Positions 10,957 to 30,359 of a stretch of DNA of 64,000 nucleotides are shown here, piece after piece. Source of the stretch: an uncultured Gammaproteobacteria bacterium (GTDB lineage: Bacteria > Patescibacteriota > Patescibacteriia > UBA1558 > GWA2-36-10); NCBI GenBank assembly GCA_964633905.1, contig CAZWIT010000001.1, positions 329 through 64,328 on the forward strand. Reading direction: 5' to 3'. Both the position numbers and the translations under genes were made by a program. A model generated the notes under the pieces. The model worked only from the letters and a program-made list of their open reading frames with translations. It ran no database searches and had not been told where the DNA came from. The stretch's first letter is position 1. Each line of letters opens with the position of its first letter.

Positions 10957-10984
10957 GCTAGCTATATTTTAATAAAAATAAAAA

Positions 10985-12688
10985 ATGGCCGAAGATAAAA
11001 ATATTAATTTAATGCCAGAGGATCTGCGTAAAAAGGAAGATTTGATTAAAAAATCAAATTGGTCTTTTACGCCAGATTTGTCATCTCCAGTTAATGTAAA
11101 AAATAAGGGCTTACATACTAATAAACCAAGTGGCTCTAACCCTTCTCTTTGGTCTAAGTTATTTTCTTCTTTAAAGCCAGTACCAAAAGTAAAACCAGCG
11201 CCAATTTTAACTCCTGTTAATAAAGCAAATACAAAAGTAGAACCGATTCCTACGCCAGTTATTAAATCTCCTATTTTTATTGCTCCAGATATTAAGGCCA
11301 TGGAAGCAAAAGCAATGCCGCCCAAGCTTGATAAAGTAGAGGAGCATATTCAAGATTTTGTGGCTGATAAAAAAATTAAAGAACCTAAATTAAAAAATAG
11401 CGGTCCTTCTTTTTGGTCTAAGTTATTTTCTTCTTCAAAGTCAGTGCCAAAAGTAAAGCCTATGCCGAATTTAACTCCGGTAAGTTCAGCCAAACCAAAA
11501 ATTGAACCAAAAACTGAGCCTTTGGTAATTCCGACTATTAAGTCTCCTATTTATACGGCGCCAAGTATGAGTCCAATCGCTATTAAGGCAGATAATAACG
11601 TAAAGACAGGCGAGCATATTCAAGATTTTGTGGCTGATAAAAAAATTAAAGAAGCTAAATTAAAAAATAGCGGTCCTTCTTGGTGGCAACGTTTATTATC
11701 TTTTTTTAAGCCTAAGGCCCGCACGCCTAAGCCAGCTAAACCAAGTGCTTCAGTTTTAACGCAGGCCATAAAACGTAATGGTTATAAGGTGGAGACTGCT
11801 AATTTAGAAATGCATCAAGCTACCAAACAAAATGCAGTTATGCCGAAACAGGATCTTAAAGATTTAAATCAAAAAGTTGAAGATATTTTAGAAACAAAAC
11901 CAGTTGTTGAAAAAGTACCTAAAACTGCAGAGGCAGCGGATATTGTTTTGCCTACAGCAGTAGTAAAACCAGAAATAATTAAAACAGAGCCAGTAGCATC
12001 AGATTTTGATATTCCTAGTATGCCAACTGCAGAAAAGCTTTCCAAATCACCAGCAGTTGCAGCCACCCCAGTTGAAAATAATAAATTTCATCAACCTGAT
12101 CTTTTGCATAAAAATGGCTTGATGGGTCAAATTGGTAATGTTGATTTAATACCGCAGGCCGCTAAACTGCGTAGTTGGCGTCAGATTAATGGCTTGCTGT
12201 CTTTAGCTAGTGTTGCGTCATTGCTTATTATCGGAGTTTTTTATGGGGCCTTATTATTGCAAGAGCAGGCCATCATCAAAGAGCAAAAGCTACAACAAAC
12301 AGCCATGTTGGAGCTTGAAAAAAAAGTTTTGAATTTTAATGATTTAAATAAGAATATTAAAGTTTTGGGTGAAGAAATTAATTTAGTGCAAGAAGCATTA
12401 AATAAACACATCTACTGGACAAAGTTTTTTACTCTTTTAGAAAAATATACCTTGCCAGAAGTTTATTATAGCGGTCTTTCGGCTGGTAATAATGGAGCCT
12501 TGACCTTGGGTGCTACTACTGATAGTTATGAGGCTGTAGCTAGGCAGTTAAAGGTTTTACAGGGAGAAGAGGCTAAGGAATTTATCACAGCCGTTAGTAT
12601 TAGTGGTGCTGTAAAAGATGGTAATAAGGTTGGTTTTTCTGTTAATTTAGTATTGAACCCGAATTTATTTTATTATGATAAACAATAG
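10985..12688 (+). CDS. pilN: PilN-like protein with an extended repeat-containing N-terminal region
   Basis: The C-terminal third has a single TM helix (LLSLASVASLLIIGVFYGALLL) followed by a coiled-coil/PilN-like region. Position immediately after pilM supports the call. The N-terminal roughly 300 aa is Pro/Lys-rich with 90-aa tandem repeats. Confidence 0.6.
   Translation: MAEDKNINLMPEDLRKKEDLIKKSNWSFTPDLSSPVNVKNKGLHTNKPSGSNPSLWSKLFSSLKPVPKVKPAPILTPVNKANTKVEPIPTPVIKSPIFIAPDIKAMEAKAMPPKLDKVEEHIQDFVADKKIKEPKLKNSGPSFWSKLFSSSKSVPKVKPMPNLTPVSSAKPKIEPKTEPLVIPTIKSPIYTAPSMSPIAIKADNNVKTGEHIQDFVADKKIKEAKLKNSGPSWWQRLLSFFKPKARTPKPAKPSASVLTQAIKRNGYKVETANLEMHQATKQNAVMPKQDLKDLNQKVEDILETKPVVEKVPKTAEAADIVLPTAVVKPEIIKTEPVASDFDIPSMPTAEKLSKSPAVAATPVENNKFHQPDLLHKNGLMGQIGNVDLIPQAAKLRSWRQINGLLSLASVASLLIIGVFYGALLLQEQAIIKEQKLQQTAMLELEKKVLNFNDLNKNIKVLGEEINLVQEALNKHIYWTKFFTLLEKYTLPEVYYSGLSAGNNGALTLGATTDSYEAVARQLKVLQGEEAKEFITAVSISGAVKDGNKVGFSVNLVLNPNLFYYDKQ
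11141..11760 (+). repeat. Tandem direct repeat, about 270-nt period, 2 full copies plus a partial third, inside the pilN-like gene
   Basis: A 69-nt block gagcatattcaagattttgtggctgataaaaaaattaaagaa(c/g)ctaaattaaaaaatagcggtccttct recurs at 11341 and 11611 with one mismatch. Flanking segments (ccttctYtttggtctaagttattttcttct...) also recur. This encodes the repeated peptide GEHIQDFVADKKIKExKLKNSGPSxW...KVKP. Confidence 0.85.
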
Positions 12689-12693
12689 TTTGT

Positions 12694-13380
12694 ATGGCCA
12701 ATAAAAACGAAATAAAATTTGAACAGCCTTCTGATTTGTTGGTTATAAGCAATCGCTATATAGTAGTTATTATGTCACTTTTGGTTTTTGCTCTTTTGAT
12801 GCTTGGCTACTTCTTTTTACTTAAGCCTAAAATGGTTAGTAATGAGGCTAGACAAGAACAAAATGATAAGAATATTGCCAATCAAGAAGCTAGTCAGAGA
12901 TTGCTTGCTAGTCTAGGCCGCTTAGAAAGCGAGTATAAGAATATCCAAGCTAATCGACAAGCTGATTTAGAGCAGTTAAAGAAAATTTTACCAACCAATC
13001 CGCAAGTAGCAGAAATATTTGTATTATCAGAAAAATTAGCTTTGGATAATGGCTTAAAATTAAATTCCGTTGATATTTCGGTAGATAATAATTCAAATGC
13101 TGAAAAAAATAGTGCTTCAACAGTATTAAAAATTTTACCATTGCGTTTTTCTTTAACTAGAATTTCTGATGAAGAAATGACAGATTTTTTTCCAGAAGGC
13201 TCCGTCCTTCCTTTTGATCCTAATATTGATGATTATACTTTATTTAAAAATTACATTGCTACTTTGGAAAAAAATTTACGTTTAATGGATATTCAGACAT
13301 TATCCTTGCCAGCTCTTTCGGCAGATCCTGAGAGTAATGTACCTAGTTTTAATTTTAGTGTGCTTACTTATTATCGATAA
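12694..13380 (+). CDS. pilO: PilO-like pilus assembly protein (bitopic, coiled-coil)
   Basis: Short cytoplasmic N-terminus, one TM helix, then a coiled-coil periplasmic region. Gene order is pilM-pilN-this gene. Confidence 0.5.
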   Translation: MANKNEIKFEQPSDLLVISNRYIVVIMSLLVFALLMLGYFFLLKPKMVSNEARQEQNDKNIANQEASQRLLASLGRLESEYKNIQANRQADLEQLKKILPTNPQVAEIFVLSEKLALDNGLKLNSVDISVDNNSNAEKNSASTVLKILPLRFSLTRISDEEMTDFFPEGSVLPFDPNIDDYTLFKNYIATLEKNLRLMDIQTLSLPALSADPESNVPSFNFSVLTYYR

Positions 13381-13385
13381 TTTTT

Positions 13386-13727
13386 ATGGAAAATAAAAAA
13401 AATCTTATTACCTTATTGATTATTTTTGGCATCGTTTTGATAGGCGGTAGCTTGTATTTATTTTATTTTTCCCGTGATGATGTGTCAATTAACTGGTCTC
13501 TTATCAAAGAAGATGCTATGCCACAGGTTGAAATGCAACAAATAGAATCAGCCAAAAATTTAACTCAAGAAAATATTAAAAATTTTGTTAAAACTAATAA
13601 ATTGGATGACTTAGTAAATAGCGAGCAGTATAAGGGTTTAGTTGATCCTAATATTCAAATTGAAATTGGTACAGTAAGCAATCCAGCTCCTTTTACGCAG
13701 CCTTTTGTCGAAGAAAAAAACAACTAG
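13386..13727 (+). CDS. Small membrane-anchored protein in the PilP position of the operon
   Basis: N-terminal TM segment (LITLLIIFGIVLIGGSLYLFYF), 113 aa, translationally coupled between pilO and pilB. No PilP signature is recognisable. Confidence 0.4.
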   Translation: MENKKNLITLLIIFGIVLIGGSLYLFYFSRDDVSINWSLIKEDAMPQVEMQQIESAKNLTQENIKNFVKTNKLDDLVNSEQYKGLVDPNIQIEIGTVSNPAPFTQPFVEEKNN

Positions 13728-13733
13728 ATAATT

Positions 13734-15476
13734 TTGTTATTTATGGTAGCCAACGAAGCTCAAAAATTACTTGATTATCTAAAAAATAATCAGCTAGTCA
13801 ACGATGATCAATATAACGAATTGATAAAAACACAATTCGTTTCTTTTGCTGATTTAGAGAAAACAGTACGTCGTTTAGTTTTGGTTTCTGATGAAGATTG
13901 GACTCAAGCTAAAGCTGTCTTTTTTGGCATGGAATACGCCAATTTAATTGGACAGTCTATTAGTCCAGATATATTAAATATTTTACCGGCTGATTTGGCA
14001 GAAAATTATCAAATTGTAGTATTTGCAAGAGATGATGCTAATTTGTCAGCTGGAATGGTTGATCCTAGTAATTTTAAAGCCATGGAAGCTTTAAATTTTC
14101 TAGCCCGTAAACAAAATTATCAGGTTAAATATTTTTTAATTTCTTTAGATAGTTATCGTACGGCTGTTAAGCAGTATGAAACTCTAGGTCAGGAAGTAGG
14201 GGAAGCTTTGGATACAGCTCAGGCTATTTTTGCACCTTCAGAAGAAGAGGTGGCTGGTGCAGAGGCTGGGGAAGTTGTTAAAAGTGCTCCAGTATCTAAA
14301 ATTGTCTCTGTTGTTTTGCGTCATGCTATTGAAGGTAGAGCCTCTGATATTCATATTGAACCAGTTGGCAAACAAAGCAAGGTTCGTTATCGTATTGATG
14401 GTATTTTGCACACTACTATTGTATTACCAATTTATGTCCATGCAGCCTTGGTGTCTCGTATTAAAGTTATGGCTAATTTAAAAATTGATGAAACACGCGT
14501 ACCTCAAGATGGCCGTATCAGGCTTACTATTCATAATAAAGAAATAGATTTTCGTGTTTCTACTTTGCCTTTGATGGGACAAGAAAAAGTAGTAATGCGT
14601 ATTTTAGATACACCTGACAAGGCACCTACTTTTAAGGACTTAGGTTTTTTTGGTTTACAAGCCAAGGTTATTGAAGAGAATATCAATAAACCACACGGCT
14701 TATTTTTACTCACCGGGCCTACTGGTTCTGGTAAAAGCACGACTCTTTATGCGGCTTTAAGTTATTTAAATAAAGAAGAAGTAAATATTGCAACCCTAGA
14801 AGACCCAGTTGAATATTATATTCCAGGAGTTAATCAGTCCCAAATTAGGCCAGAAGTTAATTTTACTTTTGCTACAGGTTTAAGGTCATTACTTAGACAG
14901 GATCCTGATATTATTATGGTGGGAGAAGTGCGTGATAATGAAACTGCCGAACTTGCTATACATGCTGGTCTTACGGGACACTCAGTTTTGACTACCTTGC
15001 ACACTAATGATGCGGTTGGCACAATACCACGTTTATTTGATATGCATGTTGAACCATTTTTACTGGCTAATACTTTAAATGCTGTTATTGCTCAGCGTTT
15101 AGTAAGAAGGATTTGTTCTAAGTGTAAGGCAGAAGAACAGATACCAGCTGATGTTTTACAGAAAATTAAAGATGAACTAGCAAAAGTGCCGGAAGCAGCT
15201 TTATATGGAGGCCTGGATCGTAATAATATGAAGTTTTTTAAGGGCTTGGGCTGTGTGAATTGCTCGCAAACCGGCTACAAGGGTCGTTTATCTATAGTAG
15301 AGGCTATTAATGTTACTCGCGGTCTGCAGGAGGTTATTGCCAAGGGTTTTGCTCGTGAAGCAGCCGAGGAAGAATTAATAAAGCAAAATTTTATCACTAT
15401 GCAAACTGATGGCTTGATTAAAGCAGCTCTCGGCATGACCACTGTAGAAGAAGTAATGCGCGTCAGTAAAATGTAA
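13734..15476 (+). CDS. pilB: Type IV pilus extension ATPase PilB (GspE family)
   Basis: Walker A LLTGPTGSGKSTTLYAAL. Asp box, Walker B and His box are all intact (DPDIIMVGEVRD, GHSVLTTLHTND). A C-terminal tetracysteine zinc motif is present (CSKCK...CVNCSQTGYKGR). Length 580 aa. Confidence 0.9.
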   Translation: MLFMVANEAQKLLDYLKNNQLVNDDQYNELIKTQFVSFADLEKTVRRLVLVSDEDWTQAKAVFFGMEYANLIGQSISPDILNILPADLAENYQIVVFARDDANLSAGMVDPSNFKAMEALNFLARKQNYQVKYFLISLDSYRTAVKQYETLGQEVGEALDTAQAIFAPSEEEVAGAEAGEVVKSAPVSKIVSVVLRHAIEGRASDIHIEPVGKQSKVRYRIDGILHTTIVLPIYVHAALVSRIKVMANLKIDETRVPQDGRIRLTIHNKEIDFRVSTLPLMGQEKVVMRILDTPDKAPTFKDLGFFGLQAKVIEENINKPHGLFLLTGPTGSGKSTTLYAALSYLNKEEVNIATLEDPVEYYIPGVNQSQIRPEVNFTFATGLRSLLRQDPDIIMVGEVRDNETAELAIHAGLTGHSVLTTLHTNDAVGTIPRLFDMHVEPFLLANTLNAVIAQRLVRRICSKCKAEEQIPADVLQKIKDELAKVPEAALYGGLDRNNMKFFKGLGCVNCSQTGYKGRLSIVEAINVTRGLQEVIAKGFAREAAEEELIKQNFITMQTDGLIKAALGMTTVEEVMRVSKM

Positions 15477-15494
15477 TTGATCAATTAGAAATTT

Positions 15495-15866
15495 ATGAAC
15501 AGTAAAAAAATATTAGTAGTAGAAGATGATAACTTTTTATTAGCAATGTATAATACTAAGTTATTATTAGAAAATTTTAAAGTTGTTACTGCAACTACCG
15601 GAGTTCAAGCTTTACGTTTAGTGAATAAAGAAAAACCAGATTTGATTTTGTTGGATTTAAATTTGCCAGAAATGGATGGTTTTGAAGTTTTAGCTAATTT
15701 AAAACACGATAAAGATACTAGCAATATTCCAGTCATTGTTTTGACTAATTATTCCCAAAAAGAGCATATTGATAAATGTTTTGCTTTAGGTGCCGCTGAT
15801 TATTTAATAAAAGCTCATTTTGTGCCAGCCGAAGTGGTTGATAAAATAAAAAAGATTTTAGTTTAA
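15495..15866 (+). CDS. Stand-alone receiver-domain response regulator (CheY/PilH-like)
   Basis: 123 aa. Acidic pocket VVEDDNF, phospho-acceptor region LILLDLNLPEMDGFEV, a conserved Thr in VLTNYS, and a Lys in the KAHF region. There is no output domain. Confidence 0.8.
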   Translation: MNSKKILVVEDDNFLLAMYNTKLLLENFKVVTATTGVQALRLVNKEKPDLILLDLNLPEMDGFEVLANLKHDKDTSNIPVIVLTNYSQKEHIDKCFALGAADYLIKAHFVPAEVVDKIKKILV

Positions 15867-15868
15867 AA

Positions 15869-16933
15869 ATGTCTGACACTTTATTTATTAATAAGATTTT
15901 AAACATCGCCCTGGAGCGTAGAGCCACGGACGTGCATTTGGTAGTAGCTAATAATCCAGTATTACGTATTGATGGGAGACTAGTTACTTTGACTGATGAG
16001 CAGTTATTGAGTCCAGATTTAATCAATGATTTAGTTGCCTCCTTTTTGAGTCCAGCTAATTTGGAGCGTTTAAATAAAGAAAAAGAAATTACCACTGTTT
16101 ATACTTGGGCTGATCGAGCAAGATTTAGAGCAAAAATATTTTATCAAAAAGGATATTTAGCTCTTTCTATGCGTCTAATTTCATCATTAATTATGTCACC
16201 TAAAGATTTAGGTATACCACAAACAGTAGTGCAGAGTCTAAATAAAACTAGTGGTTTAGTAATCATCACTGGTCCTTATGGTTCAGGTAGGACGACTACA
16301 GCCGCGGCTTTGCTTGAAACTTTAAATCGTAATCGAGGCATGCATATTCAAACCATTGAAGAGCCGATTGAATATTTATTTGTTAATAATCAGTCAGTTA
16401 TTGAACAACGAGAAGTTGGTCGTGATGTTACTAGTTTTAGTAAAGGCTTAGAAACTATTATTGAAGATGATGTGGATGCTGTATTGTTATCTAGTCTACA
16501 CGAAGATGGCTTGGAAGAAATGGTTTTAGAATTAGCTGAAAGTGGTAAATTAGTATTAGTGATTATGGATGCTGATTCGGTGATATCAGCTCTAGATCGT
16601 TTTATTAGTAATTTGTCAGCTGACCGGAGAGCTTGGGGGCAAAATATTTTATCAGAAGTATTATTGGTAGTTTTAGCTCAGCGTCTACTTCCTAGAGTAG
16701 GTGGGGGCATGGCTTTGGCTTGTGAAGTTTTAACTACCACGCCAGCTGTTAAATCAAGTATCAAAGAAAACCATTTATATCAGTTAAGTAGTATTATGCA
16801 AACTTCTCGTGAAGAGGGCATGGTTTATTTAGATAAATCTTTATGGGATTTAGTGCGGGCTGGTGATATTGCTGCCGAAGAAGCAATGAAGGTAGCTGAT
16901 AATCCTCAAATATTTAAACAAGCAATTAAGTAA
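15869..16933 (+). CDS. PilT-like hexameric ATPase paralogue with degenerate catalytic motifs; predicted pseudo-ATPase
   Basis: Overall it matches the PilT architecture (N-terminal PAS-like domain, HIQTIEEPIEY Asp-box region, 354 aa). Walker A reads GPYGSGRTT, with the lysine replaced by Arg; the codon AGG was checked in the nucleotide sequence. The Walker B region is DAVLLSSLHED in place of DIILVGEMRD, so the catalytic Glu is lost. The His box is KLVLVIMDAD in place of GHLVFGTLHT, so both His residues are lost. Confidence 0.8.
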   Translation: MSDTLFINKILNIALERRATDVHLVVANNPVLRIDGRLVTLTDEQLLSPDLINDLVASFLSPANLERLNKEKEITTVYTWADRARFRAKIFYQKGYLALSMRLISSLIMSPKDLGIPQTVVQSLNKTSGLVIITGPYGSGRTTTAAALLETLNRNRGMHIQTIEEPIEYLFVNNQSVIEQREVGRDVTSFSKGLETIIEDDVDAVLLSSLHEDGLEEMVLELAESGKLVLVIMDADSVISALDRFISNLSADRRAWGQNILSEVLLVVLAQRLLPRVGGGMALACEVLTTTPAVKSSIKENHLYQLSSIMQTSREEGMVYLDKSLWDLVRAGDIAAEEAMKVADNPQIFKQAIK

Positions 16934-16936
16934 GTT

Positions 16937-18151
16937 ATGTTATTATTTAAATACAGGGCCAGAACTAGAGACGGGGCAATGACTAAAGGTGTAGTAGAGG
17001 CCTCGAGCAGTCAAGAGGCAGCAGAAATTTTAGCTGATCGCGATTTGATAGTTCTGTATTTAGAGGCTAGTAAAAATAAAAGTACTAAACATAGTATTAA
17101 TTTTAATATTGGTAAAGTTAGTCAAAAAGATTTAGTAATATTTTCGCGTCAGTTGGCAGTGATGATTCAGGCCACCATACCGATTGTTCAAGCTTTAAGG
17201 ATTTTAGCCCAGCAAACTTCTAACCCAATATTTTTAAGCAAAGTTAACGAGATGGCTAATGATGTTGATGGTGGTATGAAGTTATCGGATGCTCTTGCCA
17301 AACACAAGAAAATTTTCAGTAATTTTTATGTAGCCATGATTCGTTCTGGTGAAACTTCTGGTCGTTTGGAAGAAGTATTAGAATATTTGGCTGATCAGAT
17401 GGAAAAGGATTATGATCTCACATCGCGTATTAAGGGCGCTATGATTTATCCAGTTTTGATTTTATTTGGTATGGTCGGCGTTGGTACTTACGTGGTAGTA
17501 GCGATTTTGCCAAAAATGACAGTTATTTTAAAAGAAACTAGCACTGAGTTGCCGCTGGTTACTAGGGTTTTGATTGGTATTTCAGATTTTATGGTTGCAG
17601 CTTGGATTTGGATTTTACTTTTCTTACTTGGTTTGGGAGCTTTGTTTTATTGGTGGAAAAATAGCCGTTTAGGTAAATTGATTTGGGATTCTATTAAGAT
17701 TAAGATGCCAATTTTTGGAGCTCTTTATAAAAAGATATATTTAGTCCGTTTTACTAGAAGCTTATCAACTTTGATTCATGGTGGCGTACCAATTTCTTTG
17801 GCATTAAGAATTGTAGCTGAAGTTGTGGATAATCAGGCTTACCAAAAATTGATTTTAGACACAGTAGCAGAAGTAGAGGGTGGTAACTCTATCTCTACTT
17901 TATTTGCTCGTTCGCCTTTGATGCCAAAAATGCTTTCGCAAATGATGGTAATTGGCGAGCGAACTGGTAAAATAGACACTATTTTAGATAGATTGAGTGA
18001 TTTTTATAGCCGAGAAATTAATTTAATGGTATCTAATTTAACAACTTTGATAGAGCCTTTAATCTTAATTATTATGGGCGTGGGTGTCGGTGGTATGGTA
18101 GCGGCTGTTATGTTGCCTATGTATCAAGTAGCTCAAAGTATGTCGCAATAG
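16937..18151 (+). CDS. pilC: Type IV pilus inner-membrane platform protein PilC (GspF family)
   Basis: 404 aa. Two T2SS-F-like repeats with three TM segments. It sits next to pilB/pilT-like in a conserved position. Confidence 0.85.
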   Translation: MLLFKYRARTRDGAMTKGVVEASSSQEAAEILADRDLIVLYLEASKNKSTKHSINFNIGKVSQKDLVIFSRQLAVMIQATIPIVQALRILAQQTSNPIFLSKVNEMANDVDGGMKLSDALAKHKKIFSNFYVAMIRSGETSGRLEEVLEYLADQMEKDYDLTSRIKGAMIYPVLILFGMVGVGTYVVVAILPKMTVILKETSTELPLVTRVLIGISDFMVAAWIWILLFLLGLGALFYWWKNSRLGKLIWDSIKIKMPIFGALYKKIYLVRFTRSLSTLIHGGVPISLALRIVAEVVDNQAYQKLILDTVAEVEGGNSISTLFARSPLMPKMLSQMMVIGERTGKIDTILDRLSDFYSREINLMVSNLTTLIEPLILIIMGVGVGGMVAAVMLPMYQVAQSMSQ

Positions 18152-18154
18152 AAA

Positions 18155-18183
18155 TTGTCTAATAATGAAAAATTTGCTATAAT
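18155..18183 (+). promoter_or_regulatory. Pilin promoter, copy 1 (TTGTCT -35, 17-nt spacer, TGCTATAAT extended -10)
   Basis: The motif aaatttgctataat is shared with the two other pilin upstream regions. Confidence 0.5.
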
Positions 18184-18321
18184 TAATACTGTGGGGTATT
18201 CCACAAAATTAAAGTTATATTAATTAAATTATCAAGCTGAACTATTTTGAAATTTAGAGCTTCAGAGATCTCAAGCTTTAACTTTATCAGGGCAGTTTGG
18301 TGTAGGAGAGGAGGTGTAAAA

Positions 18322-18804
18322 ATGAAAAAATTAAAAGGTTTTACTTTGATCGAATTGTTAGTTGTTATTGCTATTATTGGTATTTTGGCATCAGTCGCTA
18401 TTGTCAACTTAAATAGTGCTAGACGTAAGGCTCACGCTGCTAATGTGCAGTCAGCTTTGAGTTCATTGTCTTCTGCTATTATTGTTTGCCACGATGATAA
18501 TTTACCACTACAAGGAGGACCTATAGCAGCCCCAGTTACTTGCAACGCAGGATGTGTTAATGGTACTTGTGACTCTACTACTGGCCCACAACCGGTTGCT
18601 GGCGGTAAAATTTGTGCTGGTTCGGAAACTCTTTGGCCAGACTTATTAACTGATAATTGGTCGTATTCAATAGCTACAACTTCTGGCAACTCTTATTGTG
18701 TGTCTTCTAGTACTTCTAATGTTTGGATGTTTAGAGCAGACGATAATAGTTCCGACCGTTATATTATCTGTGATCAAACTGGTTGTGTAGCTCACTCTAC
18801 ATAG
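18322..18804 (+). CDS. Type IV pilin (major pilin candidate 1)
   Basis: Prepilin leader MKKLKG|FTLIELLVVIAIIGILA with Glu5. Start set at ATG 18322, 8 nt after an AGGAGAGGAGG Shine-Dalgarno; the track ORF begins upstream. Several Cys pairs in the C-terminal globular domain. C-terminal motif WMFRADDNSSDRYIICDQTGC. Confidence 0.85.
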   Translation: MKKLKGFTLIELLVVIAIIGILASVAIVNLNSARRKAHAANVQSALSSLSSAIIVCHDDNLPLQGGPIAAPVTCNAGCVNGTCDSTTGPQPVAGGKICAGSETLWPDLLTDNWSYSIATTSGNSYCVSSSTSNVWMFRADDNSSDRYIICDQTGCVAHST

Positions 18805-18834
18805 TTACTAGTTATTCTTATAAAATTATTAAAA

Positions 18835-18859
18835 CTCCCTGCATGCAGGGAGTTTTTTT
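18835..18859 (+). terminator. Intrinsic terminator after pilin 1
   Basis: ctccctgcatgcagggag hairpin followed by a tract of 7 T. Confidence 0.65.
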
Positions 18860-18867
18860 ATTATCTT

Positions 18868-18880
18868 AAATTTGCTATAC
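18868..18880 (+). promoter_or_regulatory. Pilin promoter motif, copy 2 (aaatttgctatac)
   Basis: Same motif as copies 1 and 3, with a TATACT -10 variant, lying 30-40 nt upstream of pilin 2. Confidence 0.45.
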
Positions 18881-18913
18881 TTAAAATAGAAAGGTAGTTA
18901 GTAAAATAATAAA

Positions 18914-19420
18914 ATGAAAAAAAATAAGGGTTTTACTTTAATTGAGCTATTAGTAGTTATTGGTATTATTGGTATCTTATCTTCTTTGTCGGTAATTGGT
19001 TTAAATGGTGCTCGTAGTAAAGCACGCGCTTCGGCTGTCCATGTGAATTTAATGTCTTTAACGGCTGCTATTCGAGTTTGTGTTGAAGGTGATGAAACAC
19101 TGCTTACTAGTAATCCACCCTCTCAGCTTAGTAGGTGCAATTATGGCTGTATTAATAGTTTTTGTGAGAATAAAATAACACCAGTACCAGTAATTGGTCA
19201 ACAAATTTGTCGTATTTCAACTAAAACTTGGCCAGATATTACTGATAACAATTGGGCATATACGCCGACCAATGGTGTTAGTGGTGATATTGGCTGTATA
19301 TCATCATCTACCATTGATCATTGGTTATTTAGAGCTGATGATAATAGTTCTGATAAATATATTACTTGTGATGAATTGGGCTGTAAATTATATAACTCAG
19401 GTGGTTATTTACCTAACTAG
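18914..19420 (+). CDS. Type IV pilin (paralogue 2)
   Basis: MKKNKG|FTLIELLVVIGIIGILSS leader. C-terminal WLFRADDNSSDKYITCDELGC, near-identical to the pilin 1 C-terminus. Confidence 0.85.
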   Translation: MKKNKGFTLIELLVVIGIIGILSSLSVIGLNGARSKARASAVHVNLMSLTAAIRVCVEGDETLLTSNPPSQLSRCNYGCINSFCENKITPVPVIGQQICRISTKTWPDITDNNWAYTPTNGVSGDIGCISSSTIDHWLFRADDNSSDKYITCDELGCKLYNSGGYLPN

Positions 19421-19435
19421 TTTTTATATTAGTTG

Positions 19436-19449
19436 AAATTTGCTATAAT
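19436..19449 (+). promoter_or_regulatory. Pilin promoter motif, copy 3 (aaatttgctataat)
   Basis: Exact repeat of copy 1, just upstream of pilin 3. Confidence 0.45.
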
Positions 19450-19456
19450 ATACTTA

Positions 19457-19864
19457 ATGAAATTAAATAATAAAGCTGGCTTTTCCTTAATAGAGATATT
19501 GGTAGTAATTGCTATTATTGGTATTTTGGCTGGTCGGCAAATTATAAATTTAAATCGAGCCCGGATTAAAGCTAAAATCGCTAATGTAGAGACCAGCTTG
19601 TCATCTTTAGTTTCTATTGGAGTTTTGTGCCAAGATAATGGTCAAGATATTATGGATGGATTCTTGCCTGCTCAGTATTGTAATAATAGTGTTTGGCAGC
19701 CAGAAGGTGAGTTTTGTGGTCCTGAAAATACTTGGCCAGTTTTACGTTATGGAGCAGTCGGCACTTGTACTAGTAATACAAGCACTAAAACTTTTTCCTT
19801 TTCAGCAATAGTTGAAGGTGTTACCATCACTTGTAATCAAAGTGGTTGTACTAAATCACCATAA
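19457..19864 (+). CDS. Type IV pilin-like protein (paralogue 3)
   Basis: MKLNNKAG|FSLIEILVVIAIIGILAG leader. Start moved to ATG 19457, in frame, because the track ORF begins upstream. Cys-containing C-terminal domain. Confidence 0.8.
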   Translation: MKLNNKAGFSLIEILVVIAIIGILAGRQIINLNRARIKAKIANVETSLSSLVSIGVLCQDNGQDIMDGFLPAQYCNNSVWQPEGEFCGPENTWPVLRYGAVGTCTSNTSTKTFSFSAIVEGVTITCNQSGCTKSP

Positions 19865-19866
19865 AT

Positions 19867-20295
19867 ATGTTTAATTATAGTAATAAAACAAAATTAATAG
19901 GCTTTGGAATTTTGACTGTTTTAATTGTTTTTGTTATTTGGCTAGTCAATTATGAAGATAGTCGTAGTCAGGATATCCTGATGATGTCGCAAAGTAAAAA
20001 TCTAGCCAATGGTTTAGAAAGATATTATAGTCAATTTAGATCATATCCAGAATCAGAAGCTACTAGTCTTGTTAATCTGCTTAGTCTTTCAGAGAATGGT
20101 TTTAATATAACCGGCACTGTAAACTACTGGTCTTTAGATCAGGATTGGTTAAGAGAAGGTATTTATCAGAGTGATGGGCAACAATATACTATTCAGTTTA
20201 ATTTAAATCATGGTTGGCAAGCTTTAGGTTTAAAATCAGGCGGTGGCTTATGTCAGCTTTTGACTGGAGTAGTGTGGCAGTGCGTTAGTCAATAA
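19867..20295 (+). CDS. Small membrane-anchored protein in the pilin cluster; possibly a divergent pilin-like protein lacking Glu5
   Basis: An N-terminal hydrophobic helix (LIGFGILTVLIVFVIWLV) but no G-F-T-L-I-E prepilin motif. One C-terminal Cys pair. Tightly packed after pilin 3. Confidence 0.35.
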   Translation: MFNYSNKTKLIGFGILTVLIVFVIWLVNYEDSRSQDILMMSQSKNLANGLERYYSQFRSYPESEATSLVNLLSLSENGFNITGTVNYWSLDQDWLREGIYQSDGQQYTIQFNLNHGWQALGLKSGGGLCQLLTGVVWQCVSQ

Positions 20296-20381: not shown

Positions 20382-21164
20382 ATGATTTACGGAATTATAG
20401 TTTTTATTTTTGGACTTTTTATTGGCAGTTTTTTGAATGTGGTTATTTATAGGCTGCATCGCCAAGAGTCTTTTATTAAAGGTTTTTCTAAGTGTTTATT
20501 TTGTGGTCACCGACTTTATCCTAAGGATTTGGTGCCTTTATTTAGTTTTGTTTGGCTGAAAGGAAAGTGTCGCTATTGTCAACACCATTTTTCTAAACAG
20601 TATTTTTTGGTAGAGCTCGCTACTGCTTTGGGTTTTCTTTTAATTTATTTTAAGTTTTTGCCAAATGGTTTAGAATTTGCAAGTAGTGCTGCTATTTGGC
20701 AATTATGGTTTAGCTTTAGCATGTTAGCTTTTTTAGTTATAATTTTTGTTTATGATTTTAAATATTATTTAATATTAGACTCGGTAGTATTACCAGCTAT
20801 TATTTTAGCTTTTATTTTTAATCTAAGTTTAGGGGCAAATTTTTTAAATTTATTATTGGCAGCAGTTTTAGCATCAGGCTTCTTTTTATTCCAATTCATA
20901 GTCTCTAAAGGCACTTGGATTGGTGGTGGTGATATTCGTCTCGGATTTTTAATGGGCGCGATTTTGGGCTGGACACAGGTTTTGACAGCTTTATTTCTAG
21001 CCTATATTATGGGCAGTATTTTTAGCATTGGTCTACTATTGAGCAAAAAGAAGCAAATGTCTGATAAGGTGCCTTTTGGGACTTTTTTAACTTTAGCCAC
21101 TTTTATTAGTATGTTATATGGCCCAGCGCTTTATAACTGGTATGTATCTTTATTTAATTACTAA
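20382..21164 (+). CDS. pilD: Prepilin peptidase PilD (A24 family)
   Basis: N-terminal tetracysteine CLFCGH...CRYCQH and a polytopic membrane domain with the two catalytic Asp regions (GGGDIRLG). Confidence 0.85.
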   Translation: MIYGIIVFIFGLFIGSFLNVVIYRLHRQESFIKGFSKCLFCGHRLYPKDLVPLFSFVWLKGKCRYCQHHFSKQYFLVELATALGFLLIYFKFLPNGLEFASSAAIWQLWFSFSMLAFLVIIFVYDFKYYLILDSVVLPAIILAFIFNLSLGANFLNLLLAAVLASGFFLFQFIVSKGTWIGGGDIRLGFLMGAILGWTQVLTALFLAYIMGSIFSIGLLLSKKKQMSDKVPFGTFLTLATFISMLYGPALYNWYVSLFNY

Positions 21165-21168
21165 TTAT

Positions 21169-21921
21169 ATGTTTTACAAAAACAATATTAAAAAAAATGG
21201 GTTTACTTTAGTTGAAATTTTGATAGTTATAGCTATAATGGCTACCTTATCAGTTTTATTCATAATTAGTATCAAGAGCACTATTCATCAGAATTTTAAT
21301 AAAGACATATATAATTTAACTAACGATTTTCGCTATGCGCGCAATTTAGCAGTATCTAGAACAGCATATGATGGGGGAGAGTATCCCGGCAAGTATGGCA
21401 TTCAGATGATTAATGGCAATGGCACTTCAGTTTCTGGTAGATATGTTCTTTATGCTGGCGATCGTTATCAAAATAAAATTATTAAAAGCGTTACGTTTAG
21501 TGATCCTAGATTTAGGATTGGCGATTTTAATGCTAGTACTACCATTGCTCAAAATAATTGGTCAGCTAATTTTGAATTTATTGATGAAAATACAGTTAAT
21601 ACATATAATTTAAATTTAAGTTCAGGTCAACAATATCAGATATTTTTACAGTATCCAGATGTTCAAGATGGTGTTAATGGCTATGTGCGAGCAGTAATAT
21701 TATTAGGCCAAAAGTCTGGTGATGATTTTGTCTGGGGTAATATTGGCAATTACGGCAGCTTTTCAGCTTTTCAGTGTCGTAACGGCATATTAGAACCAGG
21801 CGAAGAGTGTGATGATGGTAATAATATTGAAACTGATGCTTGTAGATATTGTGAGATTTATAATGTTCGTAATCCCAATGATCGCCCTATTGAAGGTGGT
21901 GGCGGTGGAATTTTTGAATAA
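21169..21921 (+). CDS. Minor pilin / pseudopilin carrying a C-terminal Myxococcus-type cysteine-rich repeat
   Basis: Leader KKNG|FTLVEILIVIAIMATLS. Start set at ATG 21169, just after the pilD stop. The C-terminus CRNGILEPGEECDDGNNIETDACRYCE matches the Cys-rich repeat consensus C-x-x-G-x-x-E-x-G-E-E-C-D-D-G-N. Confidence 0.75.
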   Translation: MFYKNNIKKNGFTLVEILIVIAIMATLSVLFIISIKSTIHQNFNKDIYNLTNDFRYARNLAVSRTAYDGGEYPGKYGIQMINGNGTSVSGRYVLYAGDRYQNKIIKSVTFSDPRFRIGDFNASTTIAQNNWSANFEFIDENTVNTYNLNLSSGQQYQIFLQYPDVQDGVNGYVRAVILLGQKSGDDFVWGNIGNYGSFSAFQCRNGILEPGEECDDGNNIETDACRYCEIYNVRNPNDRPIEGGGGGIFE

Positions 21922-22603: not shown

Positions 22604-22604
22604 T

Positions 22605-23231: not shown

Positions 23232-23234
23232 TTT

Positions 23235-26215
<2,981 letters not shown>

Positions 26216-27138: not shown

Positions 27139-28578
27139 ATGGCTATTGATGATATAAAAAATTTAACTATTGATAAAATTCAGGCTGGGTTTAAGGCTAA
27201 AGATTTTTCTTGTTTAGAAATCACCCAAGCTTATTTAAAAGCTATCAAGAAAGACCAGACAAATTCTTTTATTAGTATTAATGAACAAGCTGAACAAGAA
27301 GCTAAAAAAATTGACCAATTAATGGCTAATAAAAAAGTTCACGTTTTAACAGGCGTGCCTATAGCCATTAAAGATATTATTTTGGTAAAAGATTTAAAAG
27401 CAACGGCCGCTTCTAAAATATTAGAAAATTATACTGCTCCTTTTACAGCTACGGCTGTGGCGCGTTTACAGGAAAAGGGGATGATTGTTTTGGGCAAAAC
27501 TAATTGTGATGAATTTGCCATGGGTTCTTCTAATGAGAATTCTAGTTTTGGACCAGTAAAAAATCCTTTGGACTTAAAACGGGTTCCGGGTGGTTCTTCT
27601 GGTGGTTCGGCAGCAGCGGTGGCTGCTAATTTAGCCCCAGTAGCCTTAGGCACTGATACTGGTGGTTCAATTAGGCAACCAGCGTCTTTCTGTGGCCTGG
27701 TTGGCCTTAAACCTACTTATGGCAGAGTATCGCGTTATGGCTCAATGGCTATGGCTTCTTCGCTTGATCAGATCGGCCCCCTGACCAGATCGGTAAAAGA
27801 CGCAGCTTATTTATTACAGATTATGGCTGGTGCTGATAAAAAAGACGCCACCACTTTAAAGGCAATAGTGCCAGACTATTTGGCTAATATTGATAAAGTA
27901 AATAAAAATTTACGCTTAGGTTTACCTAAGGAATACTTTGGTAAAGGTTTGAATCCAGAAATTAGCCAGAGCATTAAACAAGTCATAAATTTTCTAAAAA
28001 AACAGGGCTTTAAGATAAAAGAAGTTAGTTTACCTAGTACAGATTATGCTCTAGCTGCTTATTATCTATTAATGCCAGCCGAGGTGAGCTCTAATTTAGC
28101 TCGTTTTGATGGCTTGCTTTATGGTCTGAGCGCTAAGAGTAATTTGAATTTAGATGATTGGTATAAACAAGTGCGCTCAAAGGGTTTTAGTGCCGAAAGT
28201 AAGCGTAGAATTATTTTAGGCACTTATATTTTATCAGCTGGATATTATGATGCTTATTATAAGCAGGCACAAAGAGTGCGAACTATGATAAAACAAGACT
28301 ATGCTAAAGTTTTTAAAGAAGTAGATGTATTACTGACACCAGCAACCCCGACCACAGCTTTTAAATTAGGAGAAAAAACAAAAGATCCTTTAGATATGTA
28401 TTTATCAGATGTTTACACAGTGTCAGCAAATATTGCTGGTATTTGTGGCTTAGTTGTGCCTATTGCTCAAGATAAAAACAAATTACCCATTGGTCTACAG
28501 CTTTTATCTAGTCAATTATCAGAAGAAAAATTATTTAATTTAGGAAATTATTTAGAAAAAACATATGAGCTTAAATAA
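27139..28578 (+). CDS. gatA: Glutamyl-tRNA(Gln) amidotransferase subunit A
   Basis: Amidase signature GGSSGGSAAAVAA with catalytic Ser-cisSer-Lys context. Length 479 aa. Confidence 0.9.
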   Translation: MAIDDIKNLTIDKIQAGFKAKDFSCLEITQAYLKAIKKDQTNSFISINEQAEQEAKKIDQLMANKKVHVLTGVPIAIKDIILVKDLKATAASKILENYTAPFTATAVARLQEKGMIVLGKTNCDEFAMGSSNENSSFGPVKNPLDLKRVPGGSSGGSAAAVAANLAPVALGTDTGGSIRQPASFCGLVGLKPTYGRVSRYGSMAMASSLDQIGPLTRSVKDAAYLLQIMAGADKKDATTLKAIVPDYLANIDKVNKNLRLGLPKEYFGKGLNPEISQSIKQVINFLKKQGFKIKEVSLPSTDYALAAYYLLMPAEVSSNLARFDGLLYGLSAKSNLNLDDWYKQVRSKGFSAESKRRIILGTYILSAGYYDAYYKQAQRVRTMIKQDYAKVFKEVDVLLTPATPTTAFKLGEKTKDPLDMYLSDVYTVSANIAGICGLVVPIAQDKNKLPIGLQLLSSQLSEEKLFNLGNYLEKTYELK

Positions 28579-29353
28579 TAGAGTTAGGCAACGTCTAGCC
28601 GATGAAGTGGCAAAAAGTTATTATAAGTCTTGGCATAAGCGTTGGTGGGGCAGATTATTAATGCTACTATTAGTATTGCTTGCTATTGTTTTTATTTATT
28701 TTTTATTTTTGATTTTTAATAATATTAATCACATCAGAAAAGGTGATATCTATTCTAAAGAAACAGCTGCTTGGGTTACGGAAGATGAGTTTAAAGCTAA
28801 TCAAAAAATTACAGCCGAACTTTTAACTGATGATGATCCATGGCTTGGTGCCGAAGATCCAATAATATATATTGTTGCTTATGAATCTTTTGGCTGTCCC
28901 TATTGTAAAGATAATCAAACAGATATTAAACAATTATTACAAAAATTTAGTCCTATTGTACGTTTTATAGCCAAAGATTTTCCTAATGAAGGCACGCATC
29001 CTAATGTCATGAATGCTCACTTAGCTGCCGCTTGCGCTAATGAGCAGGGTAAATATTGGGAACTTAGAGATGTTTTATATGCTAATCAAGCTACTGAAGA
29101 AACTCCAGAGAATTTTTCTAAAGAAAATATTAAGAAATTAGCCAAAGAAAACGGTCTTAATATGCAGCAATTTACTAAGTGTTTAGACGAAGAAAAATAT
29201 TCTCAAGAAATTAGACAAGATTTTGCTAGCGGTGTGCAGATTGGAGTTGTGGGCACGCCTTCTTATATGATTAATGGTAATGTGATTCCTGGTGAAATCA
29301 AGTTTGATATTTGGGAAAAAATTATTGGCTATATTATAAAAAACGAACAATAA
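28565..29353 (+). CDS. DsbA-like thiol:disulfide oxidoreductase (membrane-anchored thioredoxin fold)
   Basis: N-terminal TM anchor and a CPYC active-site motif in a thioredoxin-like domain. Confidence 0.75.
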   Translation: MSLNNRVRQRLADEVAKSYYKSWHKRWWGRLLMLLLVLLAIVFIYFLFLIFNNINHIRKGDIYSKETAAWVTEDEFKANQKITAELLTDDDPWLGAEDPIIYIVAYESFGCPYCKDNQTDIKQLLQKFSPIVRFIAKDFPNEGTHPNVMNAHLAAACANEQGKYWELRDVLYANQATEETPENFSKENIKKLAKENGLNMQQFTKCLDEEKYSQEIRQDFASGVQIGVVGTPSYMINGNVIPGEIKFDIWEKIIGYIIKNEQ

Positions 29354-30282: not shown

Positions 30283-30359
30283 GGGGTCGTAGTTCAGTTG
30301 GTTAGAACGTCTGCCTGTCACGCAGAAGGTCGCGGGTTCGAGTCCCGTCGATCCCGCCA
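30283..30359 (+). tRNA. tRNA-Asp(GTC)
   Basis: GGGGTCG acceptor stem, anticodon loop CUGUCAC, GGTTCGAGTCC T-arm and an encoded CCA. Near-identical to the E. coli tRNA-Asp core. Confidence 0.9.

Follow-up and report, generated by a model that had tools for sequence, protein, structure and literature searches.

The gene at positions 21169-21921 (+ strand) of the window, that is, of the 64-kb stretch of DNA which was analysed, codes for a minor prepilin that carries a cysteine-rich acidic repeat close to its C-terminus. The combination of prepilin and repeat is confirmed as real and is kept in relatives. We consider it probable that the protein is a core minor pilin with two modules, that it belongs to the type IV pilus of a Patescibacterium (CPR), and that the repeat is an outward contact knob. 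The gene and its subregions are as follows (evidence in brackets):

21169..21921, + strand: bimodular minor prepilin gene (ORF, translation, Pfam and NCBIfam profiles)
21169..21201, + strand: class III prepilin leader MFYKNNIKKNG (sequence reading; N_methyl/TIGR02532 matches)
21202..21774, + strand: pilin module consisting of alpha1-N, alpha1-C and a beta-sheet globular domain (AF2, hhalign, relatives)
21775..21855, + strand: DUF4215/TIGR02232 cysteine-rich acidic repeat, residues 203-229 (profiles, alignment, pN/pS)
21856..21918, + strand: C-terminal tail IYNVRNPNDRPIEGGGGGIFE, 21 aa, Pro/Gly (orthologue comparison)

The ORF specifies a prepilin of 250 aa and terminates with the stop codon at 21919-21921. 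Database gene calls place the start at 21118 (267 aa, overlapping with pilD) but the N-termini of the orthologues favour the start at 21169. As read directly from the translation, the leader MFYKNNIKKNG, followed by FTLVEILIVIAIMATLSVLFII, is short and basic and has Gly as its last residue; position +1 after it is hydrophobic, position +5 is Glu, and the alpha1-N segment is hydrophobic. Cleavage by PilD is predicted after G11, which would generate the mature N-terminus FTLVE with Glu at +5. Among the six closest orthologues, no change is seen at G11, T13, L14, or E16. Both N-terminal profiles are exceeded: Pfam N_methyl (PF07963) matches residues 8-29 with 26.5 bits (gathering threshold 21.2), and NCBIfam TIGR02532 scores 26.1 bits (cut-off 16.3). 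An initial sequence-only reading had given the same ORF, the leader G|FTLVEIL, and the string CRNGILEPGEECDDGNNIETDACRYCE, all of which were found as stated; its assignment of the protein as a prepilin-type minor pilin is borne out by these profile matches and by the location of the gene within a type IV pilus operon. An identical protein is encoded on independent assemblies of the sequencing runs SRR13355622 and SRR13355620, and the fusion of pilin and repeat is thus not an assembly chimera.

The window pilin sits in a complete type IV pilus operon, the components of which are listed here together with a thiol-disulfide oxidoreductase encoded further downstream:

9820..20295, + strand: rest of the pilus operon (Pfam matches; weak NCBIfam GspM match)
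20382..21164, + strand: prepilin peptidase PilD (A24) (A24_N_bact 6.9e-30, Peptidase_A24 3.8e-13)
21938-22603, + strand: minor pilin, PilV/GspI-like (N_methyl; best NCBIfam match PilV, 3.3e-10, below cut-off)
22575-23231, + strand: minor pilin, GspJ/PilW/ComGF-like (N_methyl; GspJ/ComGE/ComGF ~1e-6, below cut-off)
23235-24077, + strand: minor pilin, PilX_N/GspK-like (weak PilX_N; GspK 0.014, below cut-off)
28565..29353, + strand: membrane-anchored DsbA-like thiol-disulfide oxidoreductase (Thioredoxin_4 3e-27, DSBA 8.6e-16)

The region 9820..20295 codes for PilM, two PilN/O/GspM-like membrane proteins, PilB, a response regulator, PilT, PilC, and three cysteine-containing pilins (at 18247, 18914, and 19433, with 9, 8, and 6 Cys, respectively). 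A conserved protein of 142 aa without assigned function is encoded at 19867, also within the operon. The gene for PilD, the enzyme expected to cleave the leader, ends 4 bp before the pilin gene, and the adjacency of these two genes is also found in L001, L002, L004, and L046. The window pilin gene is the first of four minor-pilin genes, and the order of this block is kept in L001, L002, and L004. The three downstream minor pilins are expected to be the partners of the window pilin in a tip/priming complex. The DsbA-like protein, whose gene position is kept in L001, L002, and L046, has a CPYC motif at residue 111 and an N-terminal hydrophobic segment (read from the translation); it is plausibly a candidate oxidant for pilin disulfides.

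The pilin body is free of cysteine, all cysteines of the protein (203, 214, 225, and 228) being located in the repeat module. AF2 predicts a pilin-like layout of alpha1 plus beta-sheet for the body, with helices at residues 14-34 and 39-62 followed by nine beta-strands, and with pLDDT values of 81-92 across most of residues 41-180 (full protein, 6-sequence alignment). An exhaustive search retrieved 67 relatives at E <= 1e-10. The alpha1-C motif DFRYARNLAVSR is common to the window pilin and to GspH/FimT pseudopilins. When compared by hhalign to an alignment of PF12019-bearing proteins, the pilin matched with 99.5% probability (E = 1.8e-22) over columns 7-68 only; this region corresponds to alpha1 including the DxRYARNLA motif and leaves the beta-domain unaligned. 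The ComGD profile (NF040982) is spanned from position 1 to 135 of 139 with 35.7 bits against a cut-off of 70, and GspH (TIGR01708) reaches 27.6 bits against a cut-off of 80. PF12019 itself had no match to the window pilin in the Pfam scan and was reached by one of the 47 aligned family members (E = 0.0044). A Foldseek search of the full model against PDB returned noise only (best E = 0.12), leaving the body without a PDB match, and when PDB sequences were searched with the body profile, pilin N-terminal helices were the only matches. Based on alpha1 and on gene order, the window pilin appears to be related to the GspH/FimU/ComGD-like class.

The repeat has the layout C203-RNGILEPGEE-C214-DDGNNIETDA-C225-RY-C228-E and occurs a single time across the whole 64-kb window. 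Consisting of 27 residues and being acidic, it is far smaller than proven adhesive pilin modules. The sequence-only reading had recognized a Myxococcus-type cysteine-rich repeat, and two curated profile models agree: Pfam DUF4215 (PF13948) scores 28.1 bits against a gathering threshold of 27 (E = 2.5e-6, residues 202-228), and NCBIfam TIGR02232 ("cysteine-rich acidic repeat") scores 25.9 bits against a cut-off of 20.8. It had placed the repeat in the C-terminal 30 residues of the protein. The repeat is indeed present, but it covers residues 203-229 and is followed by a tail of 21 aa. A conserved tail thus comes after the repeat, which makes it an insert and not a graft at the terminus. In a search of 5.8 billion proteins, the C-terminal segment alone retrieved DUF4215 proteins with multiple repeats (E = 3e-10 and 1.5e-9), so that the match exceeds chance. 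Alignment to 12 canonical repeats shows no variation at the four Cys, at the Glu of "GE", and at the Asp following C2. The canonical spacing is C-x10-C-x10-C-x3-C with a core of GE[EQ]CDDGN, and the window pattern accords with it except for the C3-C4 gap, which is 2 residues instead of 3 in the window protein and in P0009.

Within the tail there are a [DN]P..PI-type element and, at 21895-21909, a poly-Gly tract. Cys-rich and Pro-rich orthologues alike end in similar [DN]P and GGGG elements, and the tract differs in length, with 5 G in the window pilin versus 12 G in its L004 orthologue (88% identity). Sorting of the GGGGG tail by a GlyGly-CTERM/rhombosortase or sortase system was considered and rejected, as neither a transmembrane segment nor an LPXTG motif follows. 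AF2 confidence is low for the C-terminal part, both in the full-length model (pLDDT ~30 for residues 202-250) and in a module-only model (61 residues, 19-row repeat alignment; mean pLDDT 48, no secondary structure). The fold of the module, its disulfide pairing, and its Ca2+ binding are therefore inferred from motifs.

Conservation of the module was analysed in 47 aligned family members. The repeat motif is found in 12 of these as a sequence pattern, and Pfam DUF4215 matches eight at E <= 0.01. All 12 motif carriers fall within one clade of a neighbour-joining tree computed from the pilin bodies. In this repeat clade (12-13 proteins), the four core Cys are invariant, either in a single copy or with extensions to 14-16 Cys (P0005, P0010, and P0122-P0125), and the N, E/D, E, and D/E positions are kept in all 13 members. 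Orthologues with an overall identity to the window protein of as little as 32-37% still have the repeat. In the rest of the family, this site is occupied by Pro-rich tails, by Cys knots of other kinds, or by Hint (intein-like) domains, P0146 and P0160 being Hint-bearing orthologues; the majority of the family has no cysteine in either body or tail, the tail being Pro-rich. The number of Cys is even in every Cys-rich tail (4, 6, 14, or 16). L001 with a multi-Cys tail and L002 with a Pro-rich tail are both true positional orthologues with identical synteny. The sequence-only reading had asked whether orthologous minor pilins carry the same module or swap it. Both are observed: the four-Cys pattern is kept in one clade, and other positional orthologues have Pro-rich tails, Cys knots, or Hint domains instead. 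Between the orthologues that are 88% identical, the module has a pN/pS of 0.15 and the globular body one of 0.11; pS of the module is ~0.52, and its synonymous change is saturating. The module is thus shown to be under purifying selection and to be inherited within one orthologue clade.

The first half of the repeat resembles a known Ca2+ site. Site II of the ADAM disintegrin domain has the consensus XCGN(X)3EXGEXCD, in which N, E, E, and D are Ca2+ ligands (PMC4885070). The QCRNGILEPGEECD segment of the window pilin aligns in register and without gaps to site II in the "shoulder" (Ds) of ADAM and snake-venom metalloproteinase disintegrin domains; it differs by having Arg instead of the Gly after the first Cys (consensus position 3), and the rest of the disintegrin domain is missing from the window pilin. 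Pfam Disintegrin (PF00200) has no match to the window pilin at E <= 10. A profile built from this first half of the repeat retrieved from PDB only the N-termini of the ADAM10/17/22 disintegrin domains and a snake-venom "K-like" protein, ADAM10 being the best match (E = 7.6e-4). When the window module was used as a single sequence against PDB, matches to ADAM and PAPP-A were not significant (E >= 0.6), the best being atragin (E = 0.6), aligned in the correct register. The literal string XCGNXXXEXGEECD occurs in no searchable paper. N205, E209, E212, and D215 are thus putative Ca2+-ligand positions by alignment to this site.

Several other explanations have to be weighed against a contact knob. 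According to one of them, the DUF4215 match is a fortuitous Cys/Asp/Gly-rich string, or the fusion is an artefact of assembly or gene calling. Two independent curated models score above their cut-offs, multi-repeat DUF4215 proteins are matched at E ~1e-10 among 5.8 billion sequences, the module is kept in 12-13 orthologues down to 32-37% identity, its pN/pS is 0.15 with saturating synonymous change, and an identical gene is found on independent assemblies, with a further copy in the 88%-identical genome. In favour of this explanation, the Pfam score is just 1.1 bits over the gathering threshold, one copy is present of a repeat which is typically found in tandem, and the C3-C4 spacing is one residue short. 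We consider this explanation effectively refuted and its probability close to nil. A structural role deserves more attention, even though we rate it as a possible rather than a likely explanation. The module would then be a C-terminal clasp, stabilized by disulfides and Ca2+, and not a ligand binder; it would stand in for the classical pilin D-region disulfide loop or the GspG Ca2+ site and guard a cysteine-free minor pilin against unfolding or proteolysis outside the cell. C-terminal stabilization by a disulfide or by Ca2+ is an established theme among pilins and pseudopilins (D-region, GspG Ca2+ site), and a cap accords with it. The module is tiny, all four Cys are within it while the body has none, and its best-conserved non-Cys positions are the equivalents of the structural, EDTA-resistant Ca2+ site of ADAM. 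However, as most family members are Cys-free in body and tail and have Pro-rich tails, the pilin body needs no such clasp. In relatives, the module is expanded to 14-16 Cys or replaced by unrelated domains, Hint among them, and such a pattern is less typical of a core stabilizer than of a display site that is exposed and diversifies. The existence of orthologues with a cysteine-free Pro-rich tail indicates that the module is dispensable for pilus assembly; the same orthologues leave room for a purely structural role of the module.

A further explanation involves a giant protein encoded upstream of the operon:

6213..9620, + strand: giant protein rich in Cys (80 in 1135 aa), secreted or anchored (translation; adjoins pilM upstream)

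The module might be the docking point for this protein, which would then be the real tip adhesin in a PilY1-like manner. The precedent is provided by PilY1-type non-pilin adhesins on minor pilins (cited in PMC8179133). The giant protein has no Pfam or NCBIfam match; a word-index protein search returned 33 homologues, all of them unnamed, and relatives were not found in a metagenome scan. Members of its family carry a hydrophobic anchor or signal at the N-terminus and contain 3-7% Cys, and they adjoin pilM on its upstream side in the window and in two related genomes (L049 and L050). Across three cases, giant neighbours with 80, 50, and 34 Cys go with a single-repeat, a multi-repeat, and a Pro-rich pilin tail, respectively. 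In one of these two genomes, the giant protein is equally kept beside an orthologous pilin with a Cys-free Pro-rich tail; it is thus present whatever the type of pilin tail and is part of the pilus locus generally, independent of the module. The sequence-only reading had suspected a link between the repeat of the pilin and the giant protein, which did not hold up: the DUF4215 profile found nothing in the giant protein even at E <= 100, so that the two have no repeat in common. Even Cys counts in all tails additionally argue against an intermolecular disulfide. We thus regard docking as improbable.

Returning to a bimodular pilin with a contact knob, a sequence of events can be proposed. PilD would take off the 11-residue leader, and the hydrophobic alpha1-N would insert the pilin, together with the three downstream minor pilins, into a priming complex which ends up at the pilus tip. 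A subunit of the GspH/FimU type is expected at the base of the T2SS/T4P tip complex, as its lowest member, and not at the apex, and the window pilin might likewise be the lowest member of its tip complex. Only alpha1-N is buried in all type IV pilins, so that the C-terminal appendage should face outward, and surface display of the module is likely. The four cysteines would pair as two intramolecular disulfides, plausibly with the help of the operon-proximal DsbA-like CPYC protein, and N205/E209/E212/D215 may bind a structural Ca2+ in a similar way as the ADAM disintegrin "shoulder" site II. The product would be a rigid, protease-resistant, acidic knob of ~3 kDa. Such a knob would most likely serve as an exposed contact element for a ligand on a host surface or for a partner protein, and its exchange for other cassettes could tune what the pilus tip presents. 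By analogy to modular pilins, an adhesin role of the module is plausible.

The ultrasmall, host-dependent Patescibacteria have few conserved surface machines, and type IV pili are one of them. The exchange of the C-terminal appendage among positional orthologues marks a candidate specificity-determining site. Moreover, an uncharacterised repeat, DUF4215, is now found in a small, well-defined, and experimentally tractable protein, together with a Ca2+-site hypothesis taken from the ADAM disintegrin domain. A more far-reaching reading, which is speculative and which we hold to be rather doubtful, is that the GspH/FimU-like C-terminus is a hot-swappable tip display site in episymbiotic Patescibacteria, with the cassette setting which host surface is recognized. 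One lineage would have taken a Ca2+-binding DUF4215 knot that is expandable to 14-16 Cys, while others would have taken spacers rich in Pro, Cys knots of a different kind, or a Hint domain, the self-cleavage of which could leave a reactive C-terminus. If true, the widespread DUF4215 repeat, which is also present in human PAPP-A and diatom adhesive-trail proteins, would thereby gain its first functional context, as an adhesive or contact unit presented by a pilus.

Proteins of the DUF4215/TIGR02232 family share with the window repeat the four-Cys pattern and the GE[EQ]CDDGN core. The family is usually encountered as many tandem copies in large secreted proteins (e.g. P0006 and P0008), and a diatom adhesive-trail protein has 12 DUF4215 copies (bioRxiv 10.1101/2023.03.06.531300). 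The window protein differs by having one copy, which is located on a pilin, and by the C3-C4 spacing of 2 rather than 3. In PDB, the repeat profile matches PAPP-A and PAPP-A2, with residues 865-898 of PAPP-A at E = 7e-9. Single embedded DUF4215 copies thus do exist, PAPP-A having one (human PAPP-A, PAPP-A2). Two cryo-EM papers on PAPP-A were checked for a description of the repeat region, and none was found.

With respect to the pilin body, the similarity to GspH, FimU, FimT, and ComGD comprises the prepilin leader, the alpha1-C motif D-x-R-Y-A-R-N-L-A, the match to 135 of the 139 positions of the ComGD profile, and the position of the gene as the first of a four-gene block, which corresponds to the order H-I-J-K or FimU-PilV-PilW-PilX. 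The window pilin differs in that it is below every curated cut-off, that its beta-domain could not be aligned by hhalign, and that it has a C-terminal appendage. Canonical GspH/FimU proteins are not known to carry such an appendage.

Modular type IV pilins, which display grafted modules for adhesion, include PilB (vWA module) and PilC (lectin module) from Streptococcus sanguinis, and 264 architectures have been catalogued (Raynaud et al. 2021, PMC8179133). The window protein has the same organization: a class III signal peptide and a pilin module are followed by an extra module with its own database signature (N_methyl + DUF4215). It is also a minor pilin encoded in a pilus operon, for which display on the filament is expected. 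It differs in that the add-on is one Cys-rich repeat of 27 residues and not a bulky folded domain. The architecture N_methyl + DUF4215 (IPR011936/PF13948) is absent from the 264 architectures in Dataset S1 of that catalogue (PMC8179133).

In Patescibacteria, minor pilins that bear an accessory domain at the C-terminus influence host binding, and the accessory domains of PilX1 (jelly-roll) and PilX2 (beta-propeller) from Saccharibacteria TM7x have been proposed to be host-binding tip elements (PMC11623550). The two systems belong to the same superphylum, and in both of them several minor pilins encoded in the type IV pilus operon are elaborated. In contrast to those from TM7x, the window pilin is GspH-like and not PilX-like, and its appendage is of another kind and much smaller. 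As the grafting of modules onto pilins is already established, the finding extends a known pattern and overturns nothing: the window protein fits the modular-pilin pattern, and what is new, when compared to one published catalogue, is the combination of N_methyl with DUF4215.

The sequence-only reading of the ORF at 21169-21921 (+ strand) as a minor pilin bearing a Myxococcus-type cysteine-rich repeat was borne out. Both N_methyl (26.5 bits vs. GA 21.2, residues 8-29) and DUF4215 (28.1 bits vs. GA 27, residues 202-228) are above GA in Pfam, and the string quoted there is present. The profile check for the repeat was also positive in NCBIfam with TIGR02232, "cysteine-rich acidic repeat" (25.9 vs. 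cut-off 20.8), and the prepilin model TIGR02532 is above its cut-off. The module had been placed at the C-terminus; this has to be corrected, as it is subterminal and followed by a tail of 21 residues (IYNVRNPNDRPIEGGGGGIFE). The protein has four Cys, all of them in the module, and the motif occurs only once within the 64-kb window.

Translation from 21169 yields 250 residues with the N-terminus MFYKNNIKKNG-FTLVEILIVIAIMATLSVLF. Database gene calls start at the upstream ATG at 21118, resulting in a protein of 267 aa which overlaps with pilD. The N-termini of orthologues are equivalent to 21169, not to 21118, and this start leads to a typical 11-residue prepilin leader (Gly -1, Phe +1, Glu +5). 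The NCBIfam matches to ComGD (35.7 bits, 135/139 profile positions aligned) and GspH are below cut-off. When a profile of the pilin body was compared by hhalign to 20 PF12019-bearing GspH/FimT proteins, the probability was 99.5% with coverage of alpha1 only; a DxRYARNLA motif, common to the target family and GspH/FimT, is inside this aligned region. AF2 predicts the pilin body with confidence, as alpha1 plus a beta-sheet, but Foldseek found no match in the PDB; neither of two AF2 attempts gave a usable model of the module. Because the alignment is confined to alpha1 and no PDB match was obtained, we label the body "GspH/FimU/ComGD-like", which denotes likeness and not tested family membership.

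The gene is part of a complete type IV pilus operon. The order is PilM, two PilN/O/GspM-like membrane proteins, PilB, a response regulator, PilT, and PilC, followed by three Cys-containing pilins, a conserved 142-aa unknown, PilD (ending 4 bp before the target), and the target. The best, sub-threshold matches of the three prepilin-type genes thereafter are PilV/GspI, GspJ/ComGF, and GspK/PilX_N, so that the target and these genes show the canonical order H-I-J-K / FimU-PilV-PilW-PilX.

Features of the locus and its surroundings
6213-9620, + strand: giant protein (1135 aa, 80 Cys, 7.0%) with an N-terminal hydrophobic anchor, directly upstream of pilM
15495-15866, + strand: stand-alone response-regulator receiver, separated from pilB and pilT by 18 and 2 bp
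18247-19864: three pilins with 9, 8, and 6 Cys
19867-20295, + strand: 142-aa protein with an N-terminal hydrophobic segment; no Pfam or NCBIfam match
21775-21855, + strand: Cys-rich module (residues 203-229), containing the quoted string
21895-21909: poly-Gly tract
21938-24077: three minor pilins with 6, 4, and 4 Cys
28565-29353, + strand: membrane-anchored DsbA-like protein with a CPYC site, 6.6 kb downstream of the target
30283-30356, + strand: ordinary tRNA gene (Rfam scan)
32640-33015, - strand: ordinary tmRNA gene (Rfam scan, 110 bits)

Cys are encoded by every pilin-like gene of the operon but are absent from the PilN/O-like membrane proteins. A DsbA-like CPYC gene is found near the pilus operon in all relatives examined, its position being kept in synteny. 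The 142-aa protein is an unannotated conserved member of the pilus locus: four related loci (L001, L002, L004, L046) have a gene for 142-144 aa in the same slot, with no Pfam match where recorded. The position of the receiver gene between pilB and pilT is kept in L001, L002, and L046, which suggests that the ATPases driving extension and retraction are regulated directly. The DNA is chromosomal (34% GC), with housekeeping genes for a Clp/Hsp100-family AAA+ chaperone, an M48 peptidase, Mfd, DnaE, ThrRS, LigA, a GatA-type amidase, Lgt, and tmRNA. All relatives of the window are labelled Patescibacteria MAGs. The contig L004 (CAZHLU010000039.1) was deposited as "uncultured Gammaproteobacteria bacterium" despite its Patescibacteria-type gene order, and this bin is probably mislabelled or contaminated.

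The orthologous family was collected by a word-index search, by a profile of the pilin body only, and by an exhaustive HMM search over 1.84 billion representatives (14 matches below 1e-30, 67 below 1e-10). Among the 47 near-full-length members which were aligned, several tail types occupy the equivalent C-terminal site.

Tail types in the family (P-numbers are related proteins from the searches)
One DUF4215 repeat: window, P0002, the L004 orthologue, P0004, P0009, P0011, P0121
DUF4215 plus more Cys-rich sequence (14-16 Cys): P0005, P0010, P0122-P0125
Pro-rich, Cys-free: majority of members, e.g., P0007, P0012-P0016, P0126-P0141
Other small Cys motifs: P0130, P0145, P0150
Hint/intein-like domain: P0142, P0146, P0156, P0160

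The genes of P0005 and P0012 occupy matching positions in collinear operons (PilD - target - three minor pilins - LigA ... GatCA - DsbA - Lgt), and the two proteins are positional orthologues with swapped tails. Whether orthologues keep the four-Cys pattern or swap it had been left as alternatives, and both apply: one clade keeps it, other positional orthologues differ. All DUF4215-bearing members (12/12) fall into this one clade of a neighbour-joining tree of pilin bodies, which speaks for one acquisition event and, after it, vertical inheritance and elaboration. No clade member deviates in the four core Cys, and the Cys count is even in every tail. The target and the 88% identical L004 orthologue are almost saturated for synonymous change (pS about 0.52); pN/pS is 0.15 for the module and 0.11 for the globular body, which indicates that the module is maintained by selection.

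The poly-Gly tract near the C-terminus varies in length: both the window protein and P0002 have 5 Gly, the L004 orthologue 12 (about 2894-2929, as a run of GGC/GGT codons); GGGG runs also occur in several orthologues with Pro-rich tails. Since the length differences are in frame, a phase-variation switch is ruled out.

In P0142, P0146 (L048 244-1284), P0156, and P0160, the Cys-rich repeat is replaced by a C-terminal domain with Pfam matches to Hint, Hom_end_hint, Vint, and PT-HINT. A Pro-rich linker directly precedes its start (C[FL]xAGTKI...), and it ends with VHN, followed by Lys or Ala instead of Cys/Ser/Thr, and thus looks like the cleaving, non-splicing bacterial intein-like type. A pilus-tip subunit which processes its own C-terminus would be unusual, if true. 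The 2021 modular-pilin catalogue has only one pilin with PF07591 (PMC8179133).

As a single sequence, the module had no significant match in the PDB. A profile of pilin modules and canonical repeats matched, among solved structures, only PAPP-A/PAPP-A2 (residues about 865-898, E = 7e-9). When the N-terminal half was used alone as a profile, the only matches were the N-termini of ADAM-family disintegrins (ADAM10, ADAM17, ADAM22, and one snake-venom "K-like" protein; best match ADAM10, E = 7.6e-4); a Pfam scan of the target gave no Disintegrin match. The segment hit by the half-repeat profile forms the "shoulder" Ca2+-binding site II of ADAMs and P-III snake-venom metalloproteinases, with the consensus XCGN(X)3EXGEXCD; its N, E, E, and D side chains bind a buried Ca2+ which resists EDTA (PMC4885070). 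This consensus matches QCRNGILEPGEECD of the window without gaps, the ligand positions being N205, E209, E212, and D215. These are kept as N, E/D, E, and D/E in 13/13 clade members, and two of the four putative ligand positions are invariant across canonical repeats. We use a disulfide-plus-Ca2+ mini-knot as a working model only. In P0004 (residues 211-237) and P0011 (196-222), a coupled change of two conserved Gly to Cys (CGNG to CxNC and CDDGN to CDDCN) results in 6 Cys, suggesting a third disulfide between positions which are adjacent in the fold; the DUF4215 repeat thereby gains a ready-made structural constraint. To our knowledge, no function has been assigned to this repeat in any context.

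A link between the module and the giant protein had also been proposed. In the form of a shared repeat it is not supported: the giant protein has no Pfam/NCBIfam match, and the DUF4215 profile finds nothing in it even at E <= 100. Its 33 detectable homologues are unnamed proteins from Patescibacteria (627 to 1118 aa, 20-80 Cys, 3-7% Cys). In two related genomes, a homologue is immediately upstream of pilM (L049 4001-6133 and L050 4001-6850), and in one of these the pilin tail is Pro-rich and Cys-free. As the adjacency to pilM is kept even there, the giant protein counts as conserved at the pilus locus, either as a component or as a neighbour. It may contribute to the pilus system as an adhesin or another non-pilin component.

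The analysis shows the pilin features of the target, its place in the operon, the identity of its module, and the conservation and swapping of the latter; the mechanism which follows is proposed. PilD would cut after G11, and the target would enter a priming/tip complex with the three downstream minor pilins, where a GspH-like subunit is expected at the base. Since type IV filaments bury only alpha1-N, the C-terminal appendage would face outward. The DsbA-like protein would oxidise the Cys, and the module would bind Ca2+. Alternatively, the module might have a structural role only, as a clasp comparable to the D-region disulfide of pilins or the Ca2+ site of GspG. This main rival is weakened because most orthologues are devoid of Cys. 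We consider it likely that the module acts as an exposed, rigid contact element, mainly because the C-terminal site behaves as a cassette slot across the family. Such behaviour fits precedents, as modular pilins present adhesive modules (PMC8179133) and Patescibacterial minor pilins with accessory domains have been implicated in host binding (PMC11623550).

The concept of modular pilins is established, and N_methyl plus DUF4215 was not found among the 264 catalogued architectures (PMC8179133); a full-text literature search retrieved no paper linking DUF4215 with pilins. The repeat has been mentioned for Peregrinibacteria Cys-rich proteins, and in a diatom adhesive-trail protein (bioRxiv 10.1101/2023.03.06.531300). 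The pilin-DUF4215 fusion, with counts which cover one orthologous family, adds to the established modular-pilin concept.
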